From Candidatus Hydrogenedentota bacterium (GTDB lineage Bacteria; Hydrogenedentota; Hydrogenedentia; Hydrogenedentales; JAEUWI01): a DNA stretch of 64,000 nucleotides. The stretch's first letter is position 1, and each line of letters starts with the position of its first letter. The DNA is taken from the NCBI GenBank assembly GCA_034669905.1, contig JAXMOL010000009.1, positions 32,001-96,000 on the forward strand. The letters are read 5' to 3'. Shown here one piece after another: positions 8,716 to 27,494 of this stretch. Below the pieces are notes generated by a model. The model saw only the letters and a program-made list of their open reading frames with translations. It did not search any database and had not been told where the DNA came from. The translations under genes and the position numbers were made by a program.

Positions 8716-8819
8716 GCGCTTCTGTGAGGCACAGAAACGCGGTGAAGAACACACGTAAGAGATGCTGACATCCCGGTGGATGACAGAGAAACAGCGAACA
8801 GAAAGGGCATAGGAGCACC

Positions 8820-9323
8820 ATGGCAACACCTAGTAGTCAGAAATTTATTGCTCGCAATAAGGCTCCCCGGGTTCAGATCGAATATGATGTAGAACTCTAT
8901 GGGGCGGAAAAGAAAATCAACCTGCCATTCGTGATGGGTGTCATGGCGGACCTTTCCGGCAAGCCCGCGGAAGAGCTTCCTCCGGTCAGCGATCGCGACC
9001 TCGTGGAGATTGATTCGGAAAACTTTAACAGCCGGCTCAAAGCTATGAAGCCCCGCGTGGCCTTTCAGGTGCCCAATACCCTGTCGGGTGAAGGCAACCT
9101 TTCCGTGGAAATGACCTTTGAGTCCATGGATGATTTCTCGCCCGGGAAAGTGGCCGAAAACGTCGACGAGCTCAATGAGCTCCTGACCGCACGGCGTGAG
9201 CTCTCCGACCTGCTCTCCTATATGGACGGTAAGAGTGGCGCAGAAGATCTGTTGGGTAAAGTGCTCGCGGATAAAGACGCCCTGTCTCAATTGGGCGGTG
9301 ACGCAAGCGAAGGAGGTGAATAA
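8820..9323 (+). CDS. tssB: T6SS contractile sheath small subunit
   Basis: SSQKFIARNKAPRVQIEYDVELYGAEKKINLPFVMGVMADLSG signature. Confidence 0.97.
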   Translation: MATPSSQKFIARNKAPRVQIEYDVELYGAEKKINLPFVMGVMADLSGKPAEELPPVSDRDLVEIDSENFNSRLKAMKPRVAFQVPNTLSGEGNLSVEMTFESMDDFSPGKVAENVDELNELLTARRELSDLLSYMDGKSGAEDLLGKVLADKDALSQLGGDASEGGE

Positions 9324-9325
9324 CC

Positions 9326-10798: not shown

Positions 10799-10847
10799 TA
10801 GCGATCCCAGGGATACTTCCCGGGGTACGATATGCCAGACAATATTG

Positions 10848-10876
10848 CCTTGCCAGCTACGCGTGAGCTGGCAAGG
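10848..10876 (+). other. Stem-loop between tssC and hcp
   Basis: CCTTGCCAGCT-7 nt-AGCTGGCAAGG, an 11-bp perfect stem. Confidence 0.6.
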
Positions 10877-10969
10877 TACTTGAATTACACGGTACAATCC
10901 GGTGTAATCCACTGAATCGAATGGTAGCGTGGAATAACCACCAACATATAGCAAAAGGAGATAAATGGG

Positions 10970-11461
10970 ATGGCAAATGCATTCTTCCTGAAAATTGACG
11001 GGGTGACAGGTGAATCGGAAGACGAAAGCCACAAAGGATGGCTGGAGATTTCCGAATTCGGCCAGGAAATGGCCCACGACATTGAAGGCGGTGGTACGCC
11101 TTCCGCAGCCGGTGGTTTCTCGACCGGTGGTGCAACGCTGGAAGTGATTTCCTTCAGCAAGTCTATGGACCGCTCCAGTGTTCAGTTGTTTCAATACTGC
11201 CTGACGGCCAAAGTGATTCCGACGATTACCATCGAAGCGGTACGTCCGACGGAAAAAGCGGAAGTGTACTTCCGCATCACACTGACCAACAGCATCATTG
11301 CCAGCATCAATACCAGCGGTAGCGATGGTGAACTCCCCACGGAAGAAGGCTCCATCGCCTTTACCACCATCAAGTGGGAATACACCATGGTTAAACCCGA
11401 CGGTAAGATGGGCGATACCTTCAGCTCTACCTGGAACCGTCTCACGAACCGCCAGACCTGA
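10970..11461 (+). CDS. hcp: T6SS tube protein Hcp (TssD)
   Basis: FLKIDGVTGESED..HKGWLEI and K.MDRSS..LF motifs; AAGGAG RBS. Confidence 0.95.
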   Translation: MANAFFLKIDGVTGESEDESHKGWLEISEFGQEMAHDIEGGGTPSAAGGFSTGGATLEVISFSKSMDRSSVQLFQYCLTAKVIPTITIEAVRPTEKAEVYFRITLTNSIIASINTSGSDGELPTEEGSIAFTTIKWEYTMVKPDGKMGDTFSSTWNRLTNRQT

Positions 11462-11493
11462 TCCGGCCGGTAATTGTTGTTTAATCTCGCGCT

Positions 11494-11531
11494 GCCGGGC
11501 TTGCATTGTGCAAGCCCGGTCGCCTATCTTT
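11494..11531 (+). terminator. Terminator-like hairpin after hcp
   Basis: CCGGGCTTGCA-TTG-TGCAAGCCCGG followed by a weak T-rich tail. Confidence 0.5.
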
Positions 11532-11676
11532 CTGCTACCCGTTGCGATGGCGCAAATCGCCCGGTAGTATTCGTTACACGGCAGGTGGTCTCTGAGCCCC
11601 GCAGGTGAGACGGAGCGTGACGGTGGGTGCGGTGCTGTTTCATCTGATGGTCGTGAATTGGAGTGAGGTCTTCCTT

Positions 11677-12174
11677 GTGTACGTTCGATATCTGCCTTCT
11701 CTCATGGACCGACTTACGGACAACGAACCCGCCAAGCGACTGGAAGCGCCCCGACCCCAGGCCATGAGTTTCCAGGAGTACCGTGCCGGATTCCAGCGGG
11801 ATCTCATGCGGCTCCTTTCCTATGGGCTTCAGGCGGCGTCGGACGAATTTGCGGGCTACCCGGAAGTACAGCGTTCCGTGCTGAACTATGGCATGGCCAA
11901 CCTCCTGGGCATGGCCGATATGGCGGCTAAACCCATTGTGGTAGAGCAAAACATCGTCGAAGCGATTCGGCGCTTCGAGCCCCGGGTTAATCGAGACACC
12001 CTCCGCGTGAACGTTTCCCGCAATGAAGTCCCGGGGGAAACCACCATGAAAAACCTGGAAATCGAAATTCAGGCGGAGTTGTGGGCCAAGCCTTATTCGG
12101 AGCACGTCTACCTCTTGACCAGCGTCGACCTGCACAATGCCAGTGTTAAAGTGAAGGAATGGCGCAATGGATAA
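11677..12174 (+). CDS. tssE: T6SS baseplate TssE (gp25-like)
   Basis: PSLMDRLTD, SVLNYG and AIRRFEPR motifs. GTG 11677 has a GAGGT RBS; the ORF track start is 11605. Confidence 0.92.
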   Translation: MYVRYLPSLMDRLTDNEPAKRLEAPRPQAMSFQEYRAGFQRDLMRLLSYGLQAASDEFAGYPEVQRSVLNYGMANLLGMADMAAKPIVVEQNIVEAIRRFEPRVNRDTLRVNVSRNEVPGETTMKNLEIEIQAELWAKPYSEHVYLLTSVDLHNASVKVKEWRNG

Positions 12175-14047
12175 GAAATCTGCCAGCCGCCGCCGACTCG
12201 AATACTACAATGAAGAGCTTCAATACCTCCGTGAAGTGGGGGAAGTCTTCGCAAAAGAAAATCCCAAAGTCGCCGGGCGCCTCGGGCTGGAATCCTTCGA
12301 GTGCGCCGACCCCTACGTGGAGCGACTACTGGAAGGTGTGGCATTCCTGACCGCCCGGGTGCGCATGAAACTCGACGACGAGTTTCCCAATTTTACCCAG
12401 AGCCTGGTCGAGACCGTCTACCCCCATTATCTCTGCCCGACACCGTCTATGACCATGGTGCAGTTTCAGCCCGATTTCGCCGAGCCTGCGCTGGATGAGG
12501 GCGTCGTGGTGCCCAAGAACACCGTCATTCGGAGTGGGGGCGGTATTGGCGATGATTTCTCCTGCCAGTATCGCACGGGGCACGATGTGACCCTCTGGCC
12601 CATCTCCCTGGTGGAGGCCCAATACTACACCCGCGAAATAAACTCTCTGGGGCTCCCCGAGCGCCGCGATATGGCCGCGGGCATCCGCCTTCGCCTGCGC
12701 ACCATGGGCGGGCAGCTCTTCAGCGATATTGACCTCAATCGCCTGAATGTGTACATCCGCGGTGGGGGCGATGTGGGCGCCCGGCTCTATGAGGCTATTT
12801 TTTCCCATGGCGTCGGTGTGGTGATGCGACCTGCCACCGATCCCGTGCCCTGGCAGCGGACCCTTTCGGCAGAGCGTATTCGTCAGGTGGGTTTTGATGA
12901 CAAGGATTATCTCCTGCCTTACGGCTCCCGCTCTTTCCAGGGCTATCGACTGCTCCACGAGTATTTCGCTTTTCCGCAGCGCTACATGTTCTTTGAAATT
13001 GGCGGTCTCGGTAAGTATCTGGGCAATGTAATCGCCTCCGAAGTCGATGTATTTATTCTCCTGAAGCAGGGCGATGTGCGGCTTGAGAACGAGGTGGGCC
13101 CGTCCAACTTCGTGTTGAACTGTACGCCCGCCGTCAATCTCTTTCCCATGGAACCCGATCGGGTGGATGTTTCCGACACCCAGTCCCGTTTTCACATTGT
13201 GGGTGATCGGACGCGCCCCCTGGACTACGAAGTTTACCAGGTGAACCAGATTACCGGCTACGGAACCCAGATGGGGGACAAGCAGGTCTTTGAACCCTTT
13301 TATTCGGCCAAGGGCTACGACGCGGAGAGCCGGGCCTACTTCACAACCTATCGCATGCCACGGCGTCTTTCCGAGCGTGAACTCAATCACGGTACCCGCT
13401 CCGGCTATGCCGGCAGTGAGGTGTACGTGTCCCTCGTTGATGCTAACGCGGCACCCTATCGCCCGGATATACGACAGCTCTCGCTCCAGACCCTTTGCAC
13501 CAACCGTGACTTGCCCCTCTTGATGCAGACGGGTATTTCCAATTCCGATTTTGTCATGGACCTGAATGCCCCGATTGAAGGCATTCGCGTTGTGGCCGGG
13601 CCCACGTCGCCCCGGGCGTCTCTGGCGGAAGGGCCCTACACGTGGCGGGTCATCAATCACCTGTCACTCAATTATCTTTCCCTGATGGATACCGAAGAGG
13701 GGGATGCGGCAGCGGCCTTGCGCGAGTTGCTCGGGCTCTATGGCAATGTCTCCGATCCCGGCACACGAAAACAGATTAACACCCTGCAGCGTGTGCAGAG
13801 TGCACCCATTACACGTCGTATTCACGGACCCGGACAAATCGCCTTTGCCCGCGGCCTGGAAATCCTGATTACCATGGACGAAGAGTCCATCGAAGGGGCC
13901 GGTTCATTCCTGCTCGGTGCCGTACTTGAACGGTTCTTTGCGAAACACGTTTCCCTGAATTCCTTCACGGAGACCGTCATACAAACCCCGGAACAAGGAG
14001 AGATCAAGCGTTGGCAAGCGAGAATGGGACAGCGGAAGCTGGTATAA
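12167..14047 (+). CDS. tssF: T6SS baseplate TssF
   Basis: YYNEELQYLRE, DPYVERLLEGVAFLTAR, GYRLLHEYFAFP and SLNSFTETV motifs. Confidence 0.97.
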   Translation: MDKKSASRRRLEYYNEELQYLREVGEVFAKENPKVAGRLGLESFECADPYVERLLEGVAFLTARVRMKLDDEFPNFTQSLVETVYPHYLCPTPSMTMVQFQPDFAEPALDEGVVVPKNTVIRSGGGIGDDFSCQYRTGHDVTLWPISLVEAQYYTREINSLGLPERRDMAAGIRLRLRTMGGQLFSDIDLNRLNVYIRGGGDVGARLYEAIFSHGVGVVMRPATDPVPWQRTLSAERIRQVGFDDKDYLLPYGSRSFQGYRLLHEYFAFPQRYMFFEIGGLGKYLGNVIASEVDVFILLKQGDVRLENEVGPSNFVLNCTPAVNLFPMEPDRVDVSDTQSRFHIVGDRTRPLDYEVYQVNQITGYGTQMGDKQVFEPFYSAKGYDAESRAYFTTYRMPRRLSERELNHGTRSGYAGSEVYVSLVDANAAPYRPDIRQLSLQTLCTNRDLPLLMQTGISNSDFVMDLNAPIEGIRVVAGPTSPRASLAEGPYTWRVINHLSLNYLSLMDTEEGDAAAALRELLGLYGNVSDPGTRKQINTLQRVQSAPITRRIHGPGQIAFARGLEILITMDEESIEGAGSFLLGAVLERFFAKHVSLNSFTETVIQTPEQGEIKRWQARMGQRKLV

Positions 14048-15060
14048 GAAACCGTCTCGCCCGACAGCCCGGCTCGGCAAATTTTTTCCAGGCCATCCGG
14101 CGACTGCAGGGCGAAGAGCCCGGTAAGGCCTTCGTTGGTTTCTCGCACCATCTCCAAGACGATATCGTTCGTTTCGGGCAGAACTTGGGCTTGACCTTCG
14201 AGTCGTCCCCCGTGGAGCGTTTTCTCGAGGATCCGGAGAGTGACGCCCCGCCCAAGATGAGCGTCAATTTCATGGGGCTTCTGGGGCCGGGCGGGCCCCT
14301 GCCGCTCAATATCACGGAATCGCTCTACGAACGGCTGCTCCATGATAAGGATCGGGCGCATCCAGAGTTTCTGGATGCCCTTCAGACCCGCGTTATTTCG
14401 CTCTACTATCGGGCCTGGGCCGAGTGCCAGGCGACCGCGTCGTATGAGCGCACCCGCAATGGTTCCTTTTCCAAGTACGTCTCCAGTCTGGTGGGTATCG
14501 GCTCTGAGAGTTTCATCGAGCGCGATTCTATTCGCGACGATGGCAAGCGCTATTATTCGGCCTGGCTCGCGATGCAGACACGAAACTCCGAAGGGCTATG
14601 TGCCATTTTAGGGGAGTACTTCGGGGTGCCGGCCACGATCGAGCAGTTCGTGGGGCAGTGGATAGACATTCCACAGGATTGCTGCTGTCGTCTGGGAGAA
14701 ACCCGCAGCACCGGTAAGGTTGGCCAGAATCTTATCCTGGGCAGTCGCTATTGGGACCGACAACAGAAATTTCGGGTGCGTCTTGGTGCCATGGATTGGG
14801 AGCGCTATCTCAGCATGTTGCCATCGGGAGACCGGTTGGAGCATTTGATCGATTGGGTGCGAAACTATGTCGGGGAAGAACTCGAGTGGGATGTGTGCCT
14901 GATTCTCAAGCGGGAGGAAGTGCCCCAGACTTGTCTGGGCAGGCAGGGCCAACTTGGCTGGACGACCTGGTTGAAGCGGGAGGATACCACCTTTGACCAC
15001 GATCCGGAAGATCTTCGGATGGACCGAACGACCCTGGTCGCCTGGTTCAGACAGTTGTAA
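14011..15060 (+). CDS. tssG: T6SS baseplate TssG
   Basis: FFQAIRRL, GLLGPGGPLP, LYYRAW and LGWTTWL motifs; overlaps the tssF end, so the start is uncertain. Confidence 0.95.
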   Translation: MASENGTAEAGIRNRLARQPGSANFFQAIRRLQGEEPGKAFVGFSHHLQDDIVRFGQNLGLTFESSPVERFLEDPESDAPPKMSVNFMGLLGPGGPLPLNITESLYERLLHDKDRAHPEFLDALQTRVISLYYRAWAECQATASYERTRNGSFSKYVSSLVGIGSESFIERDSIRDDGKRYYSAWLAMQTRNSEGLCAILGEYFGVPATIEQFVGQWIDIPQDCCCRLGETRSTGKVGQNLILGSRYWDRQQKFRVRLGAMDWERYLSMLPSGDRLEHLIDWVRNYVGEELEWDVCLILKREEVPQTCLGRQGQLGWTTWLKREDTTFDHDPEDLRMDRTTLVAWFRQL

Positions 15061-15142
15061 AACGTTCCATGTGCGTATACAGTAGGTAGGGTAATCATCG
15101 CAGCGTCTGCAGAAGCAGTGATTTAAATTGAGTGGGTGAATA

Positions 15143-17269
15143 ATGGCTAGAACACAGGATACACGTTGGGCGAGTATTGAAACGCCCCTCGGGAAAGATG
15201 TACTGCTTTTTCGCCGCATGACCGGCGTGGAAGAGTTGGGGCGCATCTTCCAATATGAGCTCGAACTCTGCAGCGAGAATGACAACATCACATTCGACGA
15301 TATCATCGGGCAGAATGTCACGATTCGTATGAACTACACCGATTCGGATGCCCGTTTTATCAATGGCATCATAAGCCGATTCTCGCGCACCCAGGAAGTC
15401 GAAGATCTCACTTACTACCAAGCGACCATTGTTCCCAATCTCTGGTTTCTCACCCGCACCAAAGATTGTCGCATCTACCAGAATATGGATGCCGTCGCCA
15501 TCGTCAAAGATGTGCTGAAAGAAATGGGCATTACCGATGTCGAATACAAGCTCGGCAGTACGACCTATCCCACGCGGGAATTTACGGTCATGTATCGGGA
15601 GTCCTATTTTAATTTCATTTCCCGTTTGCTCGAGCAAGAGGGCATTTACTACTACTTCAAACACGAAGACGGGAAGCATACCCTGGTCCTGATTAATGCC
15701 AGCAGCCTCCATGAAGCCCAACCCGATTTTGAGGAGATGGAGTTCAATCCCCGTGATGCGGGATCCACCGATCAGGACAGCATCTACTACTGGGTCGAAA
15801 TGGGACTCTTTGAAAGCACCAAGTTCTCCTACGCCGACTACAGCCTGGAGACGCCCAAGAACATCATGTTTGGCGAGTCGGAAGTCGCGCGAGGCTATGC
15901 GAAAGATCATCTGGTCCGCTTTGACTACCCCGGGCGCTATTACGAGGCGGGCGACGCCACCAATTACGCCAAATATCGGGCCGAGGAATTTCAGGCCGAC
16001 TACCAGACCTTCAAAGGCGAGTGCATCATTCGTGGTGCGGCGTGCGGCGCCCTCTTCGCCATGACCAATTATCCCCTGGAATCACAAAACACGGACTATA
16101 TCATTACGTCCACCACCATCAATGTCGTAGGTGAAGATTACACGTCGAATCCGGTACAGGAGCAAAAGCTTGACCCCTTCAAATGTTCCTTCACCGCCAT
16201 TCGGAAAACGGAACAGTTCCGCGCCGAGAGTATCACGCCCCTCCCCTTTGTCCACGGGCCCCAAACCGCCATTGTGGTGGGGCCCTCGGGGGATGAGATT
16301 CACACCGATGAGTATGGGCGTATCAAAGTCCAGTTTCACTGGGACCGCTACGGAAACTCCGACGAGAACAGCTCGTGTTTCATTCGGCTCGCGCAAAATT
16401 GGGCCGGGAAAAACTGGGGGGCTGTGACCCTGCCCCGTATCGGGCAGGAAGTGGTTGTGGAGTTTCTGGAAGGAAATCCCGACCGTCCCATCATTATTGG
16501 CTCCCTGTATAACGCCGATAACAAGCCGCCCTATGCCCTGCCCACCAACATGACCATGACCGTCATGAAGAGTAACTCGAGCAAAGGGGGAGAGGGCTTC
16601 AATGAGATCCGCTTTGAGGACAAGAAAGACAGCGAACAGATCTTTGTCCACGGTCAAAAGAACTTCGACAAGCGGATTTTGAATGATTCTTTCACCTGGA
16701 TCGGTAACGATCACCACCTGCAGGTGGTCAACGACCGGAAAGAAAAAGTTGATAATGATAAACATGAAACGGTGGGCCGTGACCATATCGAAGTTATAGA
16801 GCGGGACCACAACCTCACCATCAAGGGGAAAGAGGCTATCAAGATTACGGATAGTCACAGCCACACGGTGGAAGGGGATGTTATTCAGGTCTACAAGAGT
16901 AACCACTCGGAAGAAGTGACCGCCGATTACTACCTCAAGGGCGATAATATCTGTATCGAAGCCGCCACCAATCTCACCATCAAGGTGGGGGACTCCTATA
17001 TCGCCATTGAATCCAGCGGTATTACCATTGGAACGACCGGTGATATCGAGTTGCTGGCCGATGGCGACATCACCAGCGAGTCGGGTGGGGATACCAAGGT
17101 GACGGCCGAGGGAGACGTCAATGTGACGGCCACGGGCGATCTCAATATGGAATCCACCGGCAATACCGCCATCGCTGCCACGGGTACGGCGGAAATGTCC
17201 GGTAGTTCTACCACCGTAAGCGGTGACGGCAACCTGACGCTCGAGGGCGGCATGGTAAGCATTAACTAA
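15143..17269 (+). CDS. vgrG: T6SS spike VgrG (TssI), ending directly after the beta-helix
   Basis: YRESYFNFISRLLEQEGIYYYF, GPQTAIVVGP, PRIGQEVVVEFLEGNPDRP, NEIRFEDKK and HxxVxxD repeats; ends GGMVSIN. Confidence 0.97.
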   Translation: MARTQDTRWASIETPLGKDVLLFRRMTGVEELGRIFQYELELCSENDNITFDDIIGQNVTIRMNYTDSDARFINGIISRFSRTQEVEDLTYYQATIVPNLWFLTRTKDCRIYQNMDAVAIVKDVLKEMGITDVEYKLGSTTYPTREFTVMYRESYFNFISRLLEQEGIYYYFKHEDGKHTLVLINASSLHEAQPDFEEMEFNPRDAGSTDQDSIYYWVEMGLFESTKFSYADYSLETPKNIMFGESEVARGYAKDHLVRFDYPGRYYEAGDATNYAKYRAEEFQADYQTFKGECIIRGAACGALFAMTNYPLESQNTDYIITSTTINVVGEDYTSNPVQEQKLDPFKCSFTAIRKTEQFRAESITPLPFVHGPQTAIVVGPSGDEIHTDEYGRIKVQFHWDRYGNSDENSSCFIRLAQNWAGKNWGAVTLPRIGQEVVVEFLEGNPDRPIIIGSLYNADNKPPYALPTNMTMTVMKSNSSKGGEGFNEIRFEDKKDSEQIFVHGQKNFDKRILNDSFTWIGNDHHLQVVNDRKEKVDNDKHETVGRDHIEVIERDHNLTIKGKEAIKITDSHSHTVEGDVIQVYKSNHSEEVTADYYLKGDNICIEAATNLTIKVGDSYIAIESSGITIGTTGDIELLADGDITSESGGDTKVTAEGDVNVTATGDLNMESTGNTAIAATGTAEMSGSSTTVSGDGNLTLEGGMVSIN

Positions 17270-17283
17270 AGGAGAAACTCGGC

Positions 17284-17829
17284 ATGCCCGATCCCAAAGA
17301 TGGCGAGGCCGGATCCGCGGTGGAGCCGGCAGAGGCCGTTGCGCCGGAGTTGGCCGACGAAGCCGATCCGGGGGCCGTCGCGGAAGTAAAAGCAGAGCAA
17401 ATCGAGGCGCAGACCGGTAAATACGGCACCCAGAAGGTGTCTCCCTATAAGCCGCCCACGGCGGAAGAGCAGCAGGCCGAGGCGAAGAAAGAAGAGAAAA
17501 AGAAAAAGAAGCAGGAAAAGAAGAAGACCGAGGCCGACGAGGAAGTTTCCGAAGAAGCGGCGGAGGAAGAGGCCCTCTTTGAATCCGTAGCCGTGATACA
17601 GGAATCGGCCGTGCAAGTGACCACCGATTGGATCGAGATCGAGTTGGTCGGGATGGATGACAGTCCGGTCGCCGGCATGCCTTATGAAATTACCTTGCCC
17701 GACGGAAAAACGGTCGATAAGGGTACCCTCGATGCCAAGGGAAAAGCGAAATTAATTGGTCTTACATCGGGCGATTGCCAGATTAGCTTCCCGGAACTGG
17801 ACCAGGCCGCCTGGGAAGAGATCGTCTGA
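17284..17829 (+). CDS. Charged/Pro-Ala protein with C-terminal transthyretin-like beta domain; probable T6SS spike adaptor
   Basis: AAAGGAG RBS in the 14-bp gap after vgrG. C-terminus is WIEIELVGMDDSPVAGMPYEITLPDG...GTLDAKG...DCQISFPELD. Confidence 0.7.
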   Translation: MPDPKDGEAGSAVEPAEAVAPELADEADPGAVAEVKAEQIEAQTGKYGTQKVSPYKPPTAEEQQAEAKKEEKKKKKQEKKKTEADEEVSEEAAEEEALFESVAVIQESAVQVTTDWIEIELVGMDDSPVAGMPYEITLPDGKTVDKGTLDAKGKAKLIGLTSGDCQISFPELDQAAWEEIV

Positions 17830-17899
17830 GCCAGAATCGTAATGTAAATATGAGAAATACCTTGACATGCGCTATTGGTCGCTGTGTACCATGGGTGAC

Positions 17900-17933
17900 G
17901 ATCCCGCGGCGGAGAATTGCGGGATCCTGTTTT
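17900..17933 (+). terminator. Terminator-like hairpin between the vgrG module and tssJ
   Basis: GATCCCGC...GCGGGATC followed by CTGTTTT. Confidence 0.45.
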
Positions 17934-18020
17934 GATTATTACGGATAACGGCCTTTTTGGGAGGGCCACCCGGGCTGCGCATTCAGGGCTTTTGAGGTCG
18001 AAACAGTTGCGTCGGGTTTT

Positions 18021-18662
18021 GTGAAGGAGAACAGGTTGTACCGCTGGGCTTGCATGACGACATTGAAGTATGGGGAAGGGATTCCCTCCGGGACTGCCCG
18101 TGCCGTCTTGACGGGTGCCCGACTGCTGTGCCTGCTGACCCTCCTGGCCGTTTCGGCCGGGGCGGTGAGTGGCTGTGCGTCGAAAAAACGGGATGCCTTC
18201 AACGTGAAACTGACCATGGATGTGGATTCTTTCCGAAATCCGCAAACGGGTGAGTTGCCGTCTATCGACGTCGATGTCTTTGCCGCCAATGCCTCGGAAG
18301 AGGGTGTCTTAAAGACCCTTAAGGTTCGAGAATATTTCGATACCGATAATCCCTATCGGGACGGAGTGGATGCCTTCAGTACCCGCTTTACCAACCAGGA
18401 TATCACCCCCAAGAAACTTTCCCGCCGGAGCCACTATTGGAAAGGCTGGAAGCGGAAGGGGGCCAAATCCATCTATATTATTGCGAACTTGCCCGAGCGC
18501 CCGGGGGAAAATCCCGAGTTGGTGCAGACCCGCTCGGTGTTGGCACTGCCGCTGGACCGCAAACTCTGGCCCAACGGATTCTTTACCCCACGTACCCGGA
18601 CCCTGAAGATTCTTATTCTGCCCAGTGGCCTGGTGAGTGAGACGACCCAGCGACGCCAATAG
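18021..18662 (+). CDS. Lipoprotein, probable divergent TssJ
   Basis: Hydrophobic stretch plus lipobox AVSG-C; position directly before tssK-L-M; ..IYIIANL.. strand. True start is probably downstream (18054 or 18108). Confidence 0.6.
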   Translation: MKENRLYRWACMTTLKYGEGIPSGTARAVLTGARLLCLLTLLAVSAGAVSGCASKKRDAFNVKLTMDVDSFRNPQTGELPSIDVDVFAANASEEGVLKTLKVREYFDTDNPYRDGVDAFSTRFTNQDITPKKLSRRSHYWKGWKRKGAKSIYIIANLPERPGENPELVQTRSVLALPLDRKLWPNGFFTPRTRTLKILILPSGLVSETTQRRQ

Positions 18663-18747
18663 GCGAATGCTGAAACGACGCCAAGGAAATCGACTGGCTT
18701 AAGGCTGCCCCCGGCAGCGGCGAGCGCGAAGATAGAGAAAGACAGCG

Positions 18748-20124
18748 ATGACGCAGCATATACACTGGCATGAAGGGCTCTTCCTGCAGCCCCACCACAT
18801 GCAGCAGATGCAACAGAACATCATCACCCAGATCCGCGCCGAGCGCCGGCTGGGTTTTGCCTTTGGCTATGGCGTCATTGAATCCGAACTCTCGGAAGAT
18901 TCCCTGCGCAATATGCTGGTGCAGTTCAAACACCTCCGCGTTATCATGCCCAGTGGCCAGGAAGTGGAATATCCCGCCAGTTCCGACTTGCCCCCACTGA
19001 ATATTCAGAGTTCGTTTGATGCGGGGGCCGAGTCGGTTACCGTCCTTGTCGGTGTGCCCCTCTGGGACGCCAACGGGGCCAACGTCGTGCCCAATGACAG
19101 TGCGGACGGATGGCGCAGCCGACGCATCTATAAGCTCGACGAAATCGAGCGTCCCGATGAAAACACAGGCGTCCATTCGCACCCCATGCTCGTGCGGCGG
19201 GTGAATGCCCGGTTGCTCTTGAGCACCGATGATATCGGCGGACTGGAAGTCTTGCCCCTCGTGCGGATTACCCGTTCCACCGCCGATAGTGCGGGGCTGC
19301 CCTCGCTCGATCCCAATTTTATTCCGCCGTGTATGCTGATCCATGGCTATACCCCCTTGCTCGCCATCGTGCGGGACCTCTCCAATCAGGTCGATGCCAA
19401 CCGCCGTGACCTGGTGACCCGCGTGTCCCGTGGAGGGACCCGGGGGGAGACGGCGCGGGATTCAAAGTTTCAATCCGAGCATATCTTCTTCCTGCAGACC
19501 CTCAACAAATACAGCGGGCGTCTGGCTTCGCTGGTCCGCGCCCCGGGCATCACGCCCTTCGACACCTATTTGACGCTGCGTGACCTGCTGGGTGAATTGG
19601 CAACCCTCGTGCCGGGCTATGACGTTATGGAAGTAACCCATTACGATCATGATCGTCCGGCCGTTGTCTTTGGCGAACTGAGCGACAAGATTCGTGAATT
19701 GCTCCAACTCATTGCCAACCAGAAATTCCGCCGGGTCGAATTCCAGGAAGACGACGAATTCTTCGTGGCCGACCTCAGCGCGGTCGATCTCAGCGAGGCC
19801 TCGGTGTGCTACCTGGCCGTGGAGACCGAGGAAGACCCCCGGACCCTCGTCAAGCTCGTGGAGGCGCAGGACCGCTTCAAGGCCATGGCCAAGAGCAATA
19901 TCCACCAGCGCGTGCGCGGCCTTACCCTGCGCGAAGAGCGCGAGGTGCCCCTCGACCTGCCCGCGCAGCCCGGACTCCATTACTTCCGTATCGAGCAGGA
20001 AGACAATAGGGCCCTGTGGCGACGTATCATCGTGGAGAATGCCATGGCGATCCGCTTCACCGTTTCCGAACCGGTGGACTACAAGTTTACCCTCTACACC
20101 ACCTATACCGACGGGGGCGAGTAG
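18748..20124 (+). CDS. tssK: T6SS baseplate TssK
   Basis: IHWHEGLFLQPHHMQQ, FIPPC and YDHD motifs. Confidence 0.93.
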   Translation: MTQHIHWHEGLFLQPHHMQQMQQNIITQIRAERRLGFAFGYGVIESELSEDSLRNMLVQFKHLRVIMPSGQEVEYPASSDLPPLNIQSSFDAGAESVTVLVGVPLWDANGANVVPNDSADGWRSRRIYKLDEIERPDENTGVHSHPMLVRRVNARLLLSTDDIGGLEVLPLVRITRSTADSAGLPSLDPNFIPPCMLIHGYTPLLAIVRDLSNQVDANRRDLVTRVSRGGTRGETARDSKFQSEHIFFLQTLNKYSGRLASLVRAPGITPFDTYLTLRDLLGELATLVPGYDVMEVTHYDHDRPAVVFGELSDKIRELLQLIANQKFRRVEFQEDDEFFVADLSAVDLSEASVCYLAVETEEDPRTLVKLVEAQDRFKAMAKSNIHQRVRGLTLREEREVPLDLPAQPGLHYFRIEQEDNRALWRRIIVENAMAIRFTVSEPVDYKFTLYTTYTDGGE

Positions 20125-20127
20125 ACC

Positions 20128-20850
20128 ATGACCCTGGTAGAGCTGACCGAGCCGCTTTTCCTCTATGTGGGCTGTCTGACCCGCGCAGCGGAGCACAACA
20201 TCCAATTTGAAGTGGAACAGGTGCGCCGGGAAATTGTCAGCATTTTCGCGGAGATGCGTATCAAGGCCGAAGCCCACCCGGCCTTGGCCTACCAGTATGA
20301 CCGGACGATTAACCTGGCCCTCATTTTCTACGTCGACTTTATGATTAAAGAAAGCGACCTCAATATCGCCGATGAATGGGTCGAGCTGGCTTTTGACGAA
20401 CAAGAGCTTGCCGGCGACGAACAGTTCTTTGACCTGCTCGAGCAGACCCTGGCGCAGAATACGGAAGTTGCCCTCCAGCAGCTCACCGTTTTCCGTGAAT
20501 GCCTCCGACTGGGATTCACCGGTTGTTATGCCGACGACTGGAAGTATATCCGGCAGAAACACTCCGACATCGACAATAAGGTATTTGGCGAGCGCTTTGA
20601 GCTATCGGCGCAACTTACGCCCACGGCCTATGAGCATGTGGAAGACAAACCCCTGCCCTTTCGTACGTTGAAGCGATTCAAGTTCGTGCGCTGGGCCATG
20701 GTCGTCCTTATTTTTCTGGTGGTGGCCGTGAATATTGGCCTCTACTATGTGAGCTCGGGCGCCCTGCGCCAGACGCTGAAAGAAATCCAGGAAACCGCGG
20801 AAACGGGCGCGGCCCACGCGATTAATCCTGCCGCTGCGAATAAGGAGTAA
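20128..20850 (+). CDS. tssL: T6SS TssL/DotU with C-terminal TM and no OmpA domain
   Basis: AGDEQFFDLL and CLRLGFTGCY motifs; single C-terminal TM segment. Confidence 0.88.
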   Translation: MTLVELTEPLFLYVGCLTRAAEHNIQFEVEQVRREIVSIFAEMRIKAEAHPALAYQYDRTINLALIFYVDFMIKESDLNIADEWVELAFDEQELAGDEQFFDLLEQTLAQNTEVALQQLTVFRECLRLGFTGCYADDWKYIRQKHSDIDNKVFGERFELSAQLTPTAYEHVEDKPLPFRTLKRFKFVRWAMVVLIFLVVAVNIGLYYVSSGALRQTLKEIQETAETGAAHAINPAAANKE

Positions 20851-20856
20851 GTACGC

Positions 20857-23800
20857 TTGGGCGCCTTACAGAAAATATACGAGCTCTTCTCCAAAATCGG
20901 TGACCTCAAGATTATGCTGGTCCCGGTGTTCTTTATCCTTGCGGCCATCGGCGGCTTCTGGGAGCAGATCACCGTCTATGTGCACGCATGGTCAATTGTA
21001 CTGCTCATCGTCCTTATTCTGATTGGCGCTGCGGTATACACCTACATCAAACTGGTGAAGCCGTGGCGTGATAGTCGCAAAGCGGCCCAGGTGCCTGGCG
21101 AAGAAGGTGTCGAGGAGGAGGTTCCTGAGATTACCGACGAGGAATTTCGTCGGGCCTTTAAGCTTAAGTTCGACAAGGGCGTGGCTGATCTGGCCGCCTT
21201 CCGGAAAGATTCCGACAAGCTGCCCCTCTATCTCGTCGTGGGCGAGCGCGGCTGTGGTAAATCCGAGGCCATTCGCCGCAGCGGCATTGGCTTCCCCGCC
21301 GGCCTGACCAACACGGAGCAGGGTGTGGGGGGGACGGAGATCCTCGATTGGTGGATTACCAACCGGGGGGTGCTCCTCGATTTGCCGGGTGCCCATTTCT
21401 TCGGGCGGGGGGGCAAGTCCGAGGCCCTCGCGTGGAAGCTCCTTCTGAAGAGTATTGCGGATTTTCGCCCCGCCAGTCCGCTGAATGGCATTATCCTCAC
21501 CTTCTCCTCCGAACAGTTGCTCGCGGACACGGATGAGTCCGTAAGCGCCAAGTCGGCCCGTCTGGTGGAGCACTTTGAAAACATCCACCGTGCCCTCGGC
21601 ACCCAGGTGCCCGTATTTATCATGGTGACCAAGGCCGACCGGCTCTGTGGCTTCCTGGAGTACTTCGGCGACCTCAAAGAAGAGGGCGGCACCGATCAGA
21701 TCTTTGGATGGTCCAACCCCGATGAATTGGAAGAACCCTTCCAGGTGGAAAAATACCGGACGGGTATCGAAGGTATTTTCCAGCGCCTTCGTCAGCGCCG
21801 GGACTCCCTTCTCCAGTATTCCATCGAATCGCGCAGTCTGGCCTATAAACGCCGTGTCCAGGTGAATCATCTCTACGAGTTTCCCCGCAGCTTCCGTCTC
21901 AGCGCGAACCGCCTGGGGGATTATCTCGAACGCATTTTCGAACCCAACTCCTGGTATTGCGATCCCTTCTTTCTGCGGGGGGCTTACTACACCTCTGCCA
22001 TTCAACGTGAGACCGAGCTCGATCCCTCGCTGGCCCGGGCCCTCGAAAAGCCACTGGAAGAGTTGCCCGCCGCACAGGCCCGCCACACAGAAGACAGCTA
22101 TTTCCTCAAGGAAACCTTGAATGATAAGGTCTTCTGCGAGGGCGGATTGGTTACTTGGAACCAGGATCCCCGCTACCAACGGAAACGGTCCCGTGCCCGT
22201 CTCGTGCTCGCTGCGGCCGTATTGCTGGCCCTGTTTACCGCCTTCACCGTCTATAGCTCCATTGTCTGGCAGCAGGAAATGGAGAATAAGCACGATGATT
22301 GGGTGGCCGTAAAGGATTGGCTGCCGGAGAGCGACAATATCGTGGCCCGAAAAGCGGGCTCCTACACCTACAACGGCGGGATCCCGGTGGAGCTCTCGGA
22401 AAAAGTCATCATCCCGGAAGACATGGGAACCCTTGAGCTTTTCGAGATGCCCAAGTTGCTGGAGCAGGGATGGATTCAGGATGTTCGCACCCCCCTCATT
22501 TTCCGTCCCATCGATCTTTTCAATCGCAAGCTCGAAACCGACATGTACGATGCCTACCGGGGCATCTTCGAGTACCGCTATGTGACCCCCCTGGTCGTCG
22601 CGGCGGAGAAGCGCATTCTCGCCGAAGAGGACCACTGGTCCGATGAAGCGACCTATGCCCTGGGGCAATTGCTCCGCATCGAGGCCACGGCGGCAAATCA
22701 GGCACCGACCCTCGGCTCGCAGGACCGCCAGGTCGACCTGGATCACTACTTCAAATTTGTTCTGGATGATTTGAGCCTCTACGCCGATCATGCCAAGGAC
22801 TACAACGATTACGTGCGTGAGATTTACCATGGCGGGGGACGAAAGGCATGGCCGCCTGAGGTGCTGGTGGACGAGAATGCCCGGGAAGGCCTGGAAGGTG
22901 CAACGGAAAGTGGCGTCAAGCAGTTCAAGAAGGCCATGGATTTCTTCGTTTCGAAAGAGGGCGAAGCCTTTGCCGACTTGCGTTTGCTCCTGGATGCCAT
23001 CGTGGCGTTCCGCGATGCCGAGTCCCTCCTGTGGAAGAACGCCCTGTCCAGCGGCGACCCCGATAGCGTGCATCAGATCGACGTAATTCTCAAATCCTGG
23101 CAACACGACGTAGAAGAGTTGTCCAAGCGCCGGGAGGCACTGGATGATGTGCTGGAGAAACTTTTCCAGGATGAAGTGGTTGATATTAAGCTGCTCTGCG
23201 ATCGCCGTCGGGTGGACGTCACGGACCAGGTGGAAGATCGCTACTATATTCTCGAGAAAGAACTGGAGAATGTGAAGCCTGTTCCGGAAGGGGAGACGGA
23301 AGAGCATCACATTGAGGGCGTCAAGGTGACCTTGGCCGCCGATTTGTTAGCCAGTAAGGAGCTTATCAAGACGGAAGTGCAGCAGTATCTTGCTGATTTC
23401 GAAGCGCTCCGGGCCAACCGCGAATACCTGGCCAAGACGGACTACCAGGATTTCCGACGCTACCAGCTGCGTAACCATGTCTACGGCTTCCTTCAGTCCT
23501 CCGATTACGTCGTGGGCGAAGACATCTACGATCCCTTTGATTACCTGCTGGATCTGGAAGAGCTGCAGAAAGCCTTTGACGAAAGCGTCCGGAATATTGC
23601 CGATTTCGACACCAATTCGGACAGCTTCAACAGCGGACGTGAAGCGGCATCCAAGATGCTCAATCTCATCTACCGCCAACAGCGCTTCCGGGTCGTCGAG
23701 CAAATCGTCCAGGCCCTGCCCATTACGACCGGCGATTTCGCCCGCATGGTTTCCTCCCGCGTAGAAGCCCAGTGGCTCGAGCGTCCAGAGATTCCTCTGA

Positions 23801-26145
23801 CGCCCGATGGCGACCTTCACCAGTTTGATGATGGCTACAACACGGAAGTGGTCTACGACCTGCTCACGCTCTGGACCCACATGGACGAAATCCTGCGCCA
23901 GGAGCGGTTGGGTAAAGACAGCCTGCCCGATGTGGAACGTCTGAAGCGGAGTTTCCGGGAAAAAGACCAGGTCTTCAATCACTACATCACGGAGTACATG
24001 AATTATTGGACCCGCACCGTGGATCAGAACACGGAGATGGTGCAATACGGCACGTGGAAAGATTTTCATCAGGAGCTCAGCAACCTCGAAGTTTACAATG
24101 TAAACCACAAGTTGCAGATTCTCTTTGAAACGGCGCTCTACGCCGTCGATATTATTCCGTCCAGCCACCCGGGACAGACCGATGCCCATTTGGACCTGTC
24201 GCTGAAGATGAAGGCCCTGACGGAGGACTTCGACGCCGAGTGTCTCCGTATTCTCAACGCGTGGAAGGCCATCGAGAAGGTCGACCGCGATGTGATGAAC
24301 GAGATCCTGTTGCTCTCCGCAGCGGACTTCAAGTCTCAGTATCTCACCCTGCTCGACAACAATGTAAACAAGGCCAACTTCGGATTCTGGAACAGTCTCT
24401 GCACCCAGGCAGTCCGTCTTCTGGCTGACGAAGGCGAGCATCTTTCCCGCTACTACCTCACGAACCTGGCCACCCGCTACCGGGGCTTCCCGTTGATTAA
24501 CGATGTGGCCACCCCGGCGCTCAGCCCCGAAGGCTTTGACGAAGCGCTTGAGTTGGTTCGACACATCAAGCAGGCACCGAAAGAAGAAGACCCGGACACG
24601 CTCATGGGCGGCGATCGCACGGGCTGGCCGGATGTGGACAAAGAAATTGACCGTCTCCAGGGCGGAAAAGTTCTCCGCACGGAATACGAGCGCGAGTGGT
24701 TTGCCCAGCTGGTGGGTGTGATGGAATTCATCGAGGGCGACGAACCCCTCACCTGTGAGCTCATCGTGCTCCCCCGGGAGAAGCAGGCCGTGCGGCCCCC
24801 CCGATTCCCGGCACCCCAACCGACCCAGAAGGTCTTCGGGGATGCGACGTGGGTCTACCGCTACCTCCGCATCAACGGCGTCGCTTTCAACACGGAACCC
24901 ACGACTTATGTGGTGGGCCACGAAGGCAAGACCTATCCCATGGCACCCGATGCCAATAAGCTGGCCATGCACTTCTACTACACCTCAGAAGACCTGGATC
25001 CAGGCGTGAACAGTTTCGCCCGGCCCAGTGGTGTGGCAGGGCTCGAAATGGACTGGTTGCCGCTGGTGGTCTTGCACATGGGGGATACGGTCGTCCTGGA
25101 AGACAAGAAGACGGCCGCCGTGCCCTTCCGCGTCGTGGACAACGCCGAGCACAAAGACAGCGAGTACTATTACTGGTTGGGATTCCGCTTTAACAAGGAG
25201 ATTCCCGATCTCAAGTCCTGGCCATCGCCCTTCAACTGGCCCCACCTGCGCCGGACCACCCGCGAACTGGGCGGGTTCCTGCCGGACGAAAGCGATGGAA
25301 ACGGCCATCTCTACCCGGAAGCACCCCTCTTGCCCCTGCAGCGGGACGTGGCTGCCGTAGAACGGGTTCAGACCAACGCGAGTATGGTACGTCCCAGTGA
25401 AAAGATAAAACAGGTGGCAACGTCGACGCCGCCGCCGGTTACGTCGACCCCATCGGCCCGGCCCTATGATGCACCGGTACCGGCGCCCACTTCGGCGCCT
25501 GCGGCCGCCATGAGCGCGGAAGAAGAGGCCTTCATCCATGCACCGGCCCTCCCCGCCGATGCTCCGGAAGTCGAAGAATCCGCGCCTATGTCTGCGCCTG
25601 CGCCCGTGGCTGCACCCGCAACGGGCCGCGTGCCCCTCTATTCGCCGGCTGGTGGACATTCCACCGACAACATCTATCAGGCCCCCCGTCCGGAGTCACG
25701 CCCGGCGCGCGGCTATTCCCCATCCACGCGGGGCTATGCGCCCGAGGATGCGCCGGTTATGACACCACCTACCGCCGAAGTGATTGTGAAGTCGCCGCCA
25801 CCGCCGGCCGTGACCGTTACACCCGCCCAACCCGTGGTGCCCGAGACGCCAACCATTCCGGTGGTGGAGCCCGCGACGATTAAGCGCAGCCCACCCGTTG
25901 TGCCCGCACCAGAGCGGCCCCTCTATACCACCGAGGTGACCTTCACCCCGCCCCGCCCCGGCGCGTCCGGGCCGGTACCCCCGGGGGGAGATGCGATAAT
26001 CGGAACGGACGCTCCGGAAGTCCATCAGGAACCCGTGCCGTCGCCCTACACGGTAAAAGAAGGCGCGGGCTACGAAGCGGTCAAGGCTAAAAAAAAAACA
26101 CGGTCGCCGGTGACGCGACGGCCGATGACCCGGGGCCGTCGCTAA
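20857..26145 (+). CDS. tssM: T6SS TssM/IcmF, very long (1,762 aa) with a Pro-rich tail; probably continues into 26157-27494 by frameshift
   Basis: Two N-terminal TMs, Walker A GERGCGKS, WW...VLLD, PLNGIILT, VTKADRL.GF.EYF, LRGAYYTSA and a third TM; the periplasmic part is divergent. Confidence 0.9.
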   Translation: MGALQKIYELFSKIGDLKIMLVPVFFILAAIGGFWEQITVYVHAWSIVLLIVLILIGAAVYTYIKLVKPWRDSRKAAQVPGEEGVEEEVPEITDEEFRRAFKLKFDKGVADLAAFRKDSDKLPLYLVVGERGCGKSEAIRRSGIGFPAGLTNTEQGVGGTEILDWWITNRGVLLDLPGAHFFGRGGKSEALAWKLLLKSIADFRPASPLNGIILTFSSEQLLADTDESVSAKSARLVEHFENIHRALGTQVPVFIMVTKADRLCGFLEYFGDLKEEGGTDQIFGWSNPDELEEPFQVEKYRTGIEGIFQRLRQRRDSLLQYSIESRSLAYKRRVQVNHLYEFPRSFRLSANRLGDYLERIFEPNSWYCDPFFLRGAYYTSAIQRETELDPSLARALEKPLEELPAAQARHTEDSYFLKETLNDKVFCEGGLVTWNQDPRYQRKRSRARLVLAAAVLLALFTAFTVYSSIVWQQEMENKHDDWVAVKDWLPESDNIVARKAGSYTYNGGIPVELSEKVIIPEDMGTLELFEMPKLLEQGWIQDVRTPLIFRPIDLFNRKLETDMYDAYRGIFEYRYVTPLVVAAEKRILAEEDHWSDEATYALGQLLRIEATAANQAPTLGSQDRQVDLDHYFKFVLDDLSLYADHAKDYNDYVREIYHGGGRKAWPPEVLVDENAREGLEGATESGVKQFKKAMDFFVSKEGEAFADLRLLLDAIVAFRDAESLLWKNALSSGDPDSVHQIDVILKSWQHDVEELSKRREALDDVLEKLFQDEVVDIKLLCDRRRVDVTDQVEDRYYILEKELENVKPVPEGETEEHHIEGVKVTLAADLLASKELIKTEVQQYLADFEALRANREYLAKTDYQDFRRYQLRNHVYGFLQSSDYVVGEDIYDPFDYLLDLEELQKAFDESVRNIADFDTNSDSFNSGREAASKMLNLIYRQQRFRVVEQIVQALPITTGDFARMVSSRVEAQWLERPEIPLTPDGDLHQFDDGYNTEVVYDLLTLWTHMDEILRQERLGKDSLPDVERLKRSFREKDQVFNHYITEYMNYWTRTVDQNTEMVQYGTWKDFHQELSNLEVYNVNHKLQILFETALYAVDIIPSSHPGQTDAHLDLSLKMKALTEDFDAECLRILNAWKAIEKVDRDVMNEILLLSAADFKSQYLTLLDNNVNKANFGFWNSLCTQAVRLLADEGEHLSRYYLTNLATRYRGFPLINDVATPALSPEGFDEALELVRHIKQAPKEEDPDTLMGGDRTGWPDVDKEIDRLQGGKVLRTEYEREWFAQLVGVMEFIEGDEPLTCELIVLPREKQAVRPPRFPAPQPTQKVFGDATWVYRYLRINGVAFNTEPTTYVVGHEGKTYPMAPDANKLAMHFYYTSEDLDPGVNSFARPSGVAGLEMDWLPLVVLHMGDTVVLEDKKTAAVPFRVVDNAEHKDSEYYYWLGFRFNKEIPDLKSWPSPFNWPHLRRTTRELGGFLPDESDGNGHLYPEAPLLPLQRDVAAVERVQTNASMVRPSEKIKQVATSTPPPVTSTPSARPYDAPVPAPTSAPAAAMSAEEEAFIHAPALPADAPEVEESAPMSAPAPVAAPATGRVPLYSPAGGHSTDNIYQAPRPESRPARGYSPSTRGYAPEDAPVMTPPTAEVIVKSPPPPAVTVTPAQPVVPETPTIPVVEPATIKRSPPVVPAPERPLYTTEVTFTPPRPGASGPVPPGGDAIIGTDAPEVHQEPVPSPYTVKEGAGYEAVKAKKKTRSPVTRRPMTRGRR
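26089..26098 (+). other. A10 homopolymer, candidate slippage/frameshift site
   Basis: GCT AAAAAAAAAA CACGG. The -1 frame has TAA at 26088-26090 and is then open from 26091 to 27494. Confidence 0.75.
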
Positions 26146-26156
26146 CCCTCGTTGAT

Positions 26157-27494
26157 GTGACCGTGACGGAGTCCCCCGAAATGGCGGGGGACCAGCGCCT
26201 GGCCAATCCCGCGCTGTTGAATCAATACAGCCGCCCCGAGGTGGTTGTCCGCAAAGGACCCGGCCAGCCCGGTGTGACCAATGCGCTCCCCATCGTTTTC
26301 GATGTGGTCTTTGAAGAGCCTGTCGTGGATTTTCCGGTCGGTTTCAACGTGCCTGGGCTCCTCTTCACCGGAAGCGCTGCCGGCCTTCATTATGAAGTGA
26401 CGGGGCAGAGGGCCTTTTACCAGGTCACTATCCGTTCCATCGAGCAAGATGGGGACGTGGCACTCGCCATTCCGGCTGCGTTGACCGCTGACCTTTTTGG
26501 CAATGTGAACCGGGCTTCCGTGGACGATGGTGCCCTGGTGCACTACGATGCCACCCGCCCCCAATGTGTCATACAAAGCGACCAGGAAGGGGTGATGAAC
26601 GAGGCCCAGATGAATATCGCGCTGGTTTTTTCCGAGCCGGTTTTTGGACTTCGTGATGATGCCCTCACCTTGGAGAACGCTACCGTGGCCCGTACCGCCG
26701 GACAGGATGGGGATACCCGGTATCATTTCGCCGTGACGCCCCGTGCAGATGGGGTGACGGCCCTGACTGTGCCTGAGGATGCGGTAGTCGATGCGACCGG
26801 CAACGGCAACGAGGCATCCCCGGTATTCTCCCTGGTGGTGGACAGCAATGGCCCGGAGGTGACGCTGAGTTCCTTCGAGACGCCCCAGGCGAGCAATAGC
26901 TGGGTCATACGCGTCCATGCCGTGTTTACGGAGCCCACCTTCGACCTGGAGAAAAGCGATGTGGCCGTACGGGGGGGCACCCTGCTCAACTTTACGCGCC
27001 GGGAAGATGGGATGACCTTCGTCTTTGACGTGAAGCCAACGGGAGATGAAGTCCTGCTGGCTATTCCAGAAGGGGTAGCCCGGGATGCCATCGGCAATCC
27101 CAATGCGGCCTCAGAGCGCTTTGTGCGGCAGATTGATCGGACGCGACCCACGGTCGCTATCGACGTTCCCGACACGGCGAAAGATGCGACGGGTGCTATC
27201 GCGGTCACGCTCAGGTTTTCGGAGCCGGTATTTTCTCTCGCGCCCGATTTACTCCAGGTCACCCGTGGTGTTGCCCATCGTGTGGGTGGGGAAGAGGGGG
27301 ATGATACCTTCCACTACCAGGTGTCCCCCGCGGGAAGCCGCCCGATCGAATTGCGCGTTGCGTCCGGCGCGGCGCGGGATCTGGCAGGAAATCTGAATCA
27401 AGGCCGTTCCCTTCGCGTTACCCCGTCAGCGCGCCGCCCAGAGGCTTCCATAGCGGAGGGGCTGCAGGAGGCCGCACCGCCATTGCGCCCCTAG
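26157..27494 (+). CDS. Four tandem bacterial Ig-like repeats; probable C-terminal part of TssM
   Basis: Repeats of RP.V....F(S/T/E)EP......D..GN.N.AS; no signal peptide; no SD before GTG 26157. Confidence 0.8.
   Translation: MTVTESPEMAGDQRLANPALLNQYSRPEVVVRKGPGQPGVTNALPIVFDVVFEEPVVDFPVGFNVPGLLFTGSAAGLHYEVTGQRAFYQVTIRSIEQDGDVALAIPAALTADLFGNVNRASVDDGALVHYDATRPQCVIQSDQEGVMNEAQMNIALVFSEPVFGLRDDALTLENATVARTAGQDGDTRYHFAVTPRADGVTALTVPEDAVVDATGNGNEASPVFSLVVDSNGPEVTLSSFETPQASNSWVIRVHAVFTEPTFDLEKSDVAVRGGTLLNFTRREDGMTFVFDVKPTGDEVLLAIPEGVARDAIGNPNAASERFVRQIDRTRPTVAIDVPDTAKDATGAIAVTLRFSEPVFSLAPDLLQVTRGVAHRVGGEEGDDTFHYQVSPAGSRPIELRVASGAARDLAGNLNQGRSLRVTPSARRPEASIAEGLQEAAPPLRP

Follow-up and report, generated by a model that had tools for sequence, protein, structure and literature searches.

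In a Candidatus Hydrogenedentota bacterium (assembly GCA_034669905.1), the gene for TssM, a membrane-complex protein of type VI secretion systems (T6SS), contains near its 3' end a run of ten adenines (A10), behind which the -1 frame is open and leads into an open reading frame (ORF) of immunoglobulin-like (Ig) domains. We analyzed this junction in a stretch of 64,000 nucleotides (contig JAXMOL010000009.1, positions 32,001 to 96,000 of the forward strand), hereafter the window, to which all coordinates without a contig label refer. Programmed transcriptional slippage on the A run is the probable explanation of this arrangement and would give rise to a short TssM as well as to a form in which a linker connects TssM to the Ig domains. 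Comparison of the available sequences indicates that the run is a recoding site conserved throughout the genus.

The A10 junction at the 3' end of tssM

26088..26098, + strand: T-A10 slippery site, with the A run at 26089-26098 in phase 0 of tssM; the T and nine A's are invariant in 9/9 genomes of the genus
26089..26145, + strand: dual-coding overlap of the Arg-rich tail of the short form (zero frame) and the start of the extension (-1 frame); CGGGGCCG is invariant
26091..27494, + strand: -1-frame ORF of 467 codons with a short linker, a conserved RLxNPxxxNQ motif and four Ig-like domains, and no signal peptide

The junction is as the sequence-only reading of this DNA had described it. Across the A10 run (26089-26098), tssM is joined to an Ig ORF in the -1 frame. 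This frame stays open from 26091 to 27494, and the T together with the first two A's forms a -1-frame TAA stop (26088-26090) that overlaps the beginning of the run. The zero frame ends 18 codons past A10, giving tssM the C-terminus KKKTRSPVTRRPMTRGRR before its stop. Addition of one A would lead to a fused product of 1744+1+467 = 2212 residues, an arithmetic that agrees with the 2,212-residue protein (TssM, Pro linker and four Ig domains) that had been predicted for one extra A. Runs of ten A or T occur only five times in the 7.44 Mb of this genome, including the tssM site, and longer ones are absent, which argues that the run at tssM is more than a chance occurrence. A further statement, that the -1 frame can be told apart by codons rich in G or C at the third position (GC3), did not hold, as GC3 by frame at 26150-26300 was 0.76 vs 0.72 and the frames were not separable near the junction.

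Conservation of the run and apparent selection on both frames

In the following, G000 denotes the genome of the window; the eight other genomes of the genus include G001-G004 and G006-G008, with G008 being a complete genome. Among 41 genomes searched for the Ig ORF, all eight of these carried an ortholog (51-84% identity). The run was T-A10 in eight of the nine genomes and T-A9 in one, invariably in phase 0 of tssM, and the Ig ORF was always found in the -1 frame relative to tssM (9/9), since the A9 species is compensated and exhibits the same frame relation as the A10 species. Comparison of orthologous loci, which the sequence-only reading had proposed, thus found both the run and the frame relation kept throughout. 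The zero-frame stop was located 18-26 codons past the run in the eight other genomes, and the number of Ig domains was four in four species and three in five. The G006 junction opens a contig separate from most of tssM, with 18 upstream codons visible. The TssM identities, pS values and Lys codon counts given next refer to the eight genomes in which a single contig carries both tssM and the junction.

The TssM proteins of these eight genomes are 63-96% identical, and a pS (proportion of synonymous differences) of 0.29-0.70 places synonymous sites near saturation. Lys is mostly encoded by AAG (AAA accounts for 19-42% of Lys codons), and only one of 28 columns with invariant Lys was AAA in all genomes, and still the three consecutive AAA codons at the run are invariant. 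Given this codon usage, they are not a by-product of a conserved KKK motif. The near-saturated synonymous sites and the preference for AAG also led us to reject a homopolymer sequencing or assembly error, which had been named as the main alternative and according to which the true gene would be a constitutive TssM-Ig fusion. All genomes are consensus assemblies, which speaks for this explanation, but the same one-base loss would have to be assumed in nine assemblies, in runs of two different lengths and in a second gene as well (see below), even though an in-frame A10 within a 1197-codon ORF of the same genome was assembled intact. Among contigs from four of 14 sequencing runs, the metagenome contigs X1, possibly from the source sample, and X6 bridge the A10 without a gap, and contigs X5 (ending inside the run) and X7 (not covering it) were uninformative; the eight other species are in agreement with the bridging contigs. 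An error also leaves the conservation of the run and the selection on the zero-frame tail unexplained; it is largely refuted and has almost no probability left.

The substitution pattern indicates purifying selection on the -1 frame. The ratio of nonsynonymous to synonymous differences (pN/pS, uncorrected) was 0.23 for the part of this frame that carries the RLxNPxxxNQ motif, located upstream of the start codons inside the Ig domains, vs 0.39 for the Ig domains themselves. The overlap is also nearly free of differences between close species: G000 and G007 differ at 2/57 nucleotides, G001, G002 and G008 at 0/72, and G006 differs from the latter three at two. In the tssM frame all four of these substitutions are silent; three of them alter the -1 frame. 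In the 69 nucleotides after the overlap, 14-18 differences were observed in six of seven pairs and five in the remaining one. Judging by these small counts, the short-form tail, which had been described as off-frame-looking, appears to be conserved under selection rather than junk. Seven of eight close database homologues were full length (1735-1762 aa) and ended in KKK followed by an Arg-rich tail; two of the seven share their C-terminus with G007 and G004, and the other five are further sequences, compared as proteins. A metagenome scan reduced 193 pattern matches to one locus, which is nearly identical to G007 and consequently not independent, and a scan of genome contigs recovered three loci from the same group. 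PF14331, the TssM family, was present in 9/133 genomes of the class, every one in this genus, and the site therefore probably arose once.

The zero-frame product as a predicted complete TssM

20857..26145, + strand: tssM zero-frame (short) product of 1762 aa with a TTG start, a Shine-Dalgarno (SD) sequence of -7.4 kcal/mol and a match to PF14331 (E 3.5e-45)
22201..22257, + strand: third predicted transmembrane helix (aa 449-467), by hydropathy; the part downstream of it putatively periplasmic
24412..25248, + strand: C-terminal alpha/beta domain of TssM (aa ~1186-1464), encoded entirely by the zero frame, upstream of the A run
25267..26088, + strand: Pro/Ala-rich linker of ~274 aa with 20% Pro, poorly conserved, holding the conserved PLYTTEVTF motif

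The gene exhibits the features by which TssM is identified, namely an IcmF-related N-terminal domain, three transmembrane helices (hydrophobic segments at aa 10-28, 42-60 and 449-467 in a hydropathy scan) and a position after tssK-tssL. The match to TIGR03348 reached 229 bits, which is under the cut-off of 388 and covers the N-terminal part only. By the TssM topology described in PMC4256274, everything downstream of the third helix would be periplasmic. An AlphaFold2 model of residues 479-1466 had a predicted local distance difference test (pLDDT) score of 85.8, and its residues ~1186-1464 matched the C-terminal domain (CTD) of TssM from enteroaggregative Escherichia coli (4y7m_C) with a moderate Z of 8.4 (root-mean-square deviation 4.8, 203 aligned residues); it stood at rank 6, the higher ranks going to helical bundles that matched a different part. 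Foldseek placed T6SS membrane-complex chains at ranks 34 and 45 with a weak E of ~0.03, and a PDB sequence search with the TssM alignment returned helical noise only. According to the model, TssM is complete in the short form, its CTD being followed by the Pro linker. Since this domain is already part of the short form, slippage would add an accessory module.

A profile of the periplasmic part retrieved 236 homologues (E <= 0.001) from 1.84 billion representatives, 150 of which were listed. Among the matches listed, 128 distant homologues of at least 1150 aa had a median length of ~1470 and a maximum of 1789 aa. The ten longest of these terminate at a WP motif or just past it, and some carry a tail rich in Pro/Thr or repeat a beta domain. 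Distant homologues stop at the C-terminal domain. The TssM described here belongs to a divergent, longer subtype (~1470 aa) whose periplasmic part is without a Pfam model. The PLYTTEVTF motif (window 25900-25960, + strand) was kept in 8/8 aligned species within the otherwise variable linker and is a possible binding motif.

The Ig module and its possible own start

26181..26183, + strand: rival start ATG with an SD-like GGAG (-6.1 kcal/mol); ATG in 1/9 genomes
26235..27419, + strand: four Big_12-type Ig-like beta-sandwiches (ORF residues ~49-152, 157-250, 255-347 and 353-443)

The Ig ORF matched Big_12 (PF19078) in three stretches with 116.8 bits vs a cut-off of 27, and its AlphaFold model (mean pLDDT 78.4) contains four beta-sandwiches, in agreement with the four Ig-like domains previously counted. 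Foldseek retrieved tandem Ig proteins (E 1e-7 to 1e-5) with low TM-scores. The repeats are ~30-38% identical to Big_12 proteins, including a 5097-codon ORF in the same genome. A hydropathy scan of the Ig ORF detected neither a hydrophobic segment nor a signal peptide, and the GTG at 26157 is without an SD sequence (+1.2 kcal/mol), both as the sequence-only reading had noted.

That reading had also pointed to ATG 26181 with its upstream GGAG as an independent start. If the Ig ORF had its own or a coupled start, two separate genes would be expressed, one for a small signal-less protein, and the A run would encode nothing other than KKK. The SD sequence at ATG 26181 is real, and at -6.1 kcal/mol it resembles those of the cluster genes (8/9 starts at -5.6 kcal/mol or stronger), but the ATG is confined to this genome: the aligned codon is a GTG or TTG without SD in two other genomes and not a start codon in six. 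Separate expression is also consistent with the apparent selection on the zero-frame tail, with KKK in 7/7 full-length database homologues, and, as its strongest argument, with a different alignment column ~17 nucleotides past the tssM stop, where ATG or GTG is present in 4/9 species, without SD. The remaining five species, in contrast, lack a canonical start ahead of domain 1, with the first ATG, GTG or TTG at codon 54-55 (four species) or 82 (one species), inside that domain, and no alignment column holds a start codon common to all nine Ig ORFs. A promoter-like site was not detected upstream of the Ig ORF, which has no signal peptide either, and the all-AAA coding of the run as well as the second split gene described below would be left unexplained. 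We regard separate genes as rather improbable.

A second split gene and the reading of A10 runs in the genus

Outside the window, a second T-A10 (C17:24786) was identified in a gene combining tetratricopeptide repeats (TPR), a Cys motif (Zn-ribbon-like) and a membrane helix (G000:C17:24354-25885; L034:3355-4886). Here the TPR ORF is followed by a 366-codon ORF in the -1 frame. As an internal control, we used the 30 best-scoring loci of a search in 133 genomes, to which the ninth genus genome was added separately. The two halves of the TPR gene are in one frame in 22/22 loci of other genera, forming a ~500-codon ORF with A runs of at most five, whereas in this genus the gene is split at an A9-A11 run in 9/9 genomes. 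The run is A10 in seven and A11 in one of them, all needing a -1 shift, and an uncompensated A9 in G007.

There are five A10 runs in G000, two in G003 and two in G008, and both runs of the complete G008 genome are located in the two split genes. Together with the splitting of the TPR gene in this genus only, this makes it very likely that the genus reads through A10 runs. Screening the 286 strand-wise A/T runs of at least eight in G000 yielded five candidates, two of which were the tssM and TPR sites. The other three (A8/T8 at C37:31022 on the - strand, C26:33060 on the - strand and C2:231271 on the + strand) lie between long ORFs in different frames and probably represent overlapping genes. 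One A10 run each in G003 and G000 adjoins hairpin-like inverted repeats without a long open frame, and two further runs in G000 are in frame; none of these was retained as a recoding candidate. At G000:C10:126364, T-A10-C is in frame within the 1197-codon ORF, after an N-terminal domain of ~250 codons, and stops in the other frames follow 7 and 2 codons on. Slippage at this position would free the N-terminal domain alone; a comparable A10 site was not present in G008 or G003.

The sequence-only reading had left it open whether slippage or phase variation toggles the Ig module, and of the two, slippage is the better supported by these comparisons. With phase variation, slipped-strand mispairing of the DNA would switch between A10 (short form) and A11 (Ig-fused form). 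The uncompensated A9 in the TPR gene of G007 is in line with such a switch, as is the Ig module, which is typical phase-variable surface cargo according to PMC3711429, and contigs would drop rare alleles. The fused state, however, was found in 0/9 genomes, 0/2 bridging run contigs and 0/1 metagenome locus, the length of the run remains within 9-10 and is compensated, an intact mutS is present, and the TPR gene, which other genera normally carry in its long form, is in frame in 0/9 genus genomes. Phase variation is thus weak at best and we consider it very unlikely.

The same fusion could also be produced by programmed ribosomal frameshifting (PRF), with the ribosome slipping by -1 on A_AAA_AAA. 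Phase 0 of the run is constant, and 17/18 junctions in the two genes call for a -1 shift; A_AAA_AAA has been implicated in PRF (PMC3711429), and this genome has a strong downstream hairpin (z -3.15, 9-bp stem). This hairpin was significant in 1/9 genomes only, the others ranging from z -0.49 to +1.3 in a search that did not extend to pseudoknots or long-range elements, and no conserved SD-like element was found upstream, where values were -3.3 to -5.1 kcal/mol and most duplexes were interrupted. Only A_AAA_AAA is present at the tssM site in 9/9 genomes; A_AAA_AAG, reported as the better shift site of the two (PMC5009743), is absent. The genome further encodes two Lys tRNAs (CTT and TTT). The heptamer would need seven A's, yet at least nine are always kept, and runs of nine A or T are the documented threshold for RNA polymerase slippage as described in PMC5009743. 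Ribosomal frameshifting is accordingly an unlikely source of the fusion, with a small share of the probability.

Proposed mechanism

In the transcriptional slippage that we favor, RNA polymerase would add or drop A's on the A9/A10 run. Unslipped mRNA would encode the complete 1762-aa TssM with its Arg-rich tail, and mRNA that has gained one A or lost two would encode the 2212-aa protein consisting of TssM, Pro linker and four Ig domains. While the anatomy of the junction, its conservation, the selection on it and the folds are observed, we infer that the long form is made and that the slippage is transcriptional, as well as the ratio of the forms, where the Ig module is located and what it does. 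A minority of Ig-tailed TssM would be present among short forms in each membrane complex, and the Ig stalk could serve as an envelope spacer or tether, or perhaps make contact at the surface. By the three-helix topology the module would be periplasmic, a compartment that it could reach only as the tail of TssM because it lacks an export signal of its own. A role as periplasmic spacer or tether seems more likely than one as surface adhesin. Surface exposure is possible, would require folded Ig domains to cross the outer membrane, and has a counterpart in the proposal that the TssM C-terminus is transiently surface-exposed and perhaps detects prey (PMC10564176).

A bolder version, which we regard as unlikely but worth stating, is that A10 slippage is a dedicated ratio-setting device of the genus that attaches an Ig-repeat adhesin stalk, through a flexible tether of 270 residues, to a few TssM copies out of ten; the stalk would cross the outer membrane and hold or sense a target, as a built-in sub-stoichiometric capture arm. 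This version draws on the finding that the complete 7.9-Mb genome has exactly two A10 runs, both in split genes.

Several observations weigh against slippage. None of 38 long Ig matches carried PF14331 in a weak search of 8000 scored candidates, and 0/157 TssM homologues matched the Ig profile, vs 38/38 controls. The lack of an in-frame TssM-Ig fusion in the databases is expected for recoding, yet it also means that the long form has never been seen. No correction was applied to the pN/pS values, which saturation inflates, and four substitutions are the basis of the overlap comparison. The nine genomes are kin, and the site may have a single origin. In the TPR gene, the A9 of G007 calls for a different shift, and in G006 the frame is broken once more farther downstream; these deviations reflect either DNA-level instability or assembly errors. 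Separate translation of the Ig ORF is possible in the subclade with the shared ATG/GTG (4/9, without SD) and from the ATG with SD in the genome of the window.

The T6SS cluster and neighboring ORFs

7438..20850, + strand: T6SS genes upstream of tssM, namely tssA, tssB, tssC, hcp, tssE, tssF, tssG, vgrG, ORF 17284 of unknown kind, ORF 18021 (lipoprotein-like, in the place of tssJ), tssK and tssL

Pfam matches in this cluster included ImpA_N, VipA, VipB, HCP, gp25, TssF, TssG, GPD/Gp5, VasE and DotU, and TIGR03363 was above its cut-off. Family searches returned no significant match for ORFs 17284 and 18021, the latter being lipoprotein-like and in the position of tssJ. A ClpV-like gene on contig C68 scored 842 vs a cut-off of 885. 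Directly after the Ig ORF, and in the same place in several relatives, is a 113-aa ORF (27634-27975, + strand) without a Pfam match, for which only a weak, sub-cut-off match to a kinase effector was obtained (21 bits vs 200). Further neighbors are a 222-aa protein with a peptidoglycan-binding domain (30198-30866, - strand) and, divergent from tssA, a 4340-codon ORF (1-7016, - strand) that runs off the window, has a signal-like N-terminus and resembles a giant surface protein.

Comparison with known systems

Searches of the literature, in which subscription journals are poorly covered, found no report of a TssM-Ig fusion or of recoding or T6SS structure in Hydrogenedentota. Slippage that alters the length of secretion system components is reported for spa13, mxiE, mxiA and spa33 of type III secretion in Shigella flexneri, which contain A/T runs; spa13 gains a C-terminal extension (PMC5009743, PMC4256274). 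These genes are alike in that slippage extends or truncates secretion parts, and differ in belonging to another secretion system and in having no Ig module. In Thermus thermophilus dnaX and two-ORF dnaX genes with A10, short and long subunits of a single complex are reported to be produced at a fixed ratio (PMC5009743, PMC3711429). The 9-10 A run, the two lysine tRNAs and subunits of two lengths are shared with this unrelated gene. Accessory C-terminal extensions of TssM and TssL are also described, such as the OmpA-like domain on TssL/TagL (PMC4632598); like the Ig module these are extra periplasmic domains, but by that account they are constitutive and bind peptidoglycan. The Ig module was absent as an extension from the 157 TssM homologues checked. 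Big_12 repeats of large secreted or surface proteins have the same fold, whereas here only three to four repeats are present, without a signal peptide and reached by recoding.

The closest precedent is tssM1 of Citrobacter rodentium, where transcriptional frameshifting on A11 is reported to yield 20-25% of a long form, both forms being needed (PMC4256274); the two TssM length variants cited in the sequence-only reading are thus borne out. An A9 run is described for tssM3 of Yersinia pseudotuberculosis, and the same source calls poly-A slippage sites uncommon among tssM genes (PMC4256274). Shared with these genes are a run of A's within tssM, a short product of the zero frame alongside a longer one that takes one extra A, and the lack of PRF signals. 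The parallel ends with the core domain. According to that report the Citrobacter run is near codon 800, where slippage restores the TssJ-binding C-terminal domain (in Yersinia it removes it), whereas the run described here (codon 1745) follows a complete CTD and the Pro linker, so that the short form, which appears functional, is not missing this domain. The different position and the distant TssM subtype suggest an independent origin.

Such an apparent second origin supports the view that TssM rings of mixed length are of repeated use. As each complex contains ten TssM (PMC4632598), a slip rate like that of Citrobacter would place about two Ig tails on each machine, and the module offers a concrete candidate for a function of the TssM C-terminus. 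The second split gene indicates that in a single lineage recoding can enter a gene that is intact elsewhere, and because annotation pipelines split both genes, the resulting proteins are invisible in databases. As far as PMC4256274 describes it, tssM slippage is known from two enterobacterial genes, in which it makes or removes a core domain. Here a slip would instead append a foreign module of three to four Ig domains, kept across a genus of a candidate phylum, and the addition of a module to a finished protein appears to be new relative to tssM1 and tssM3.

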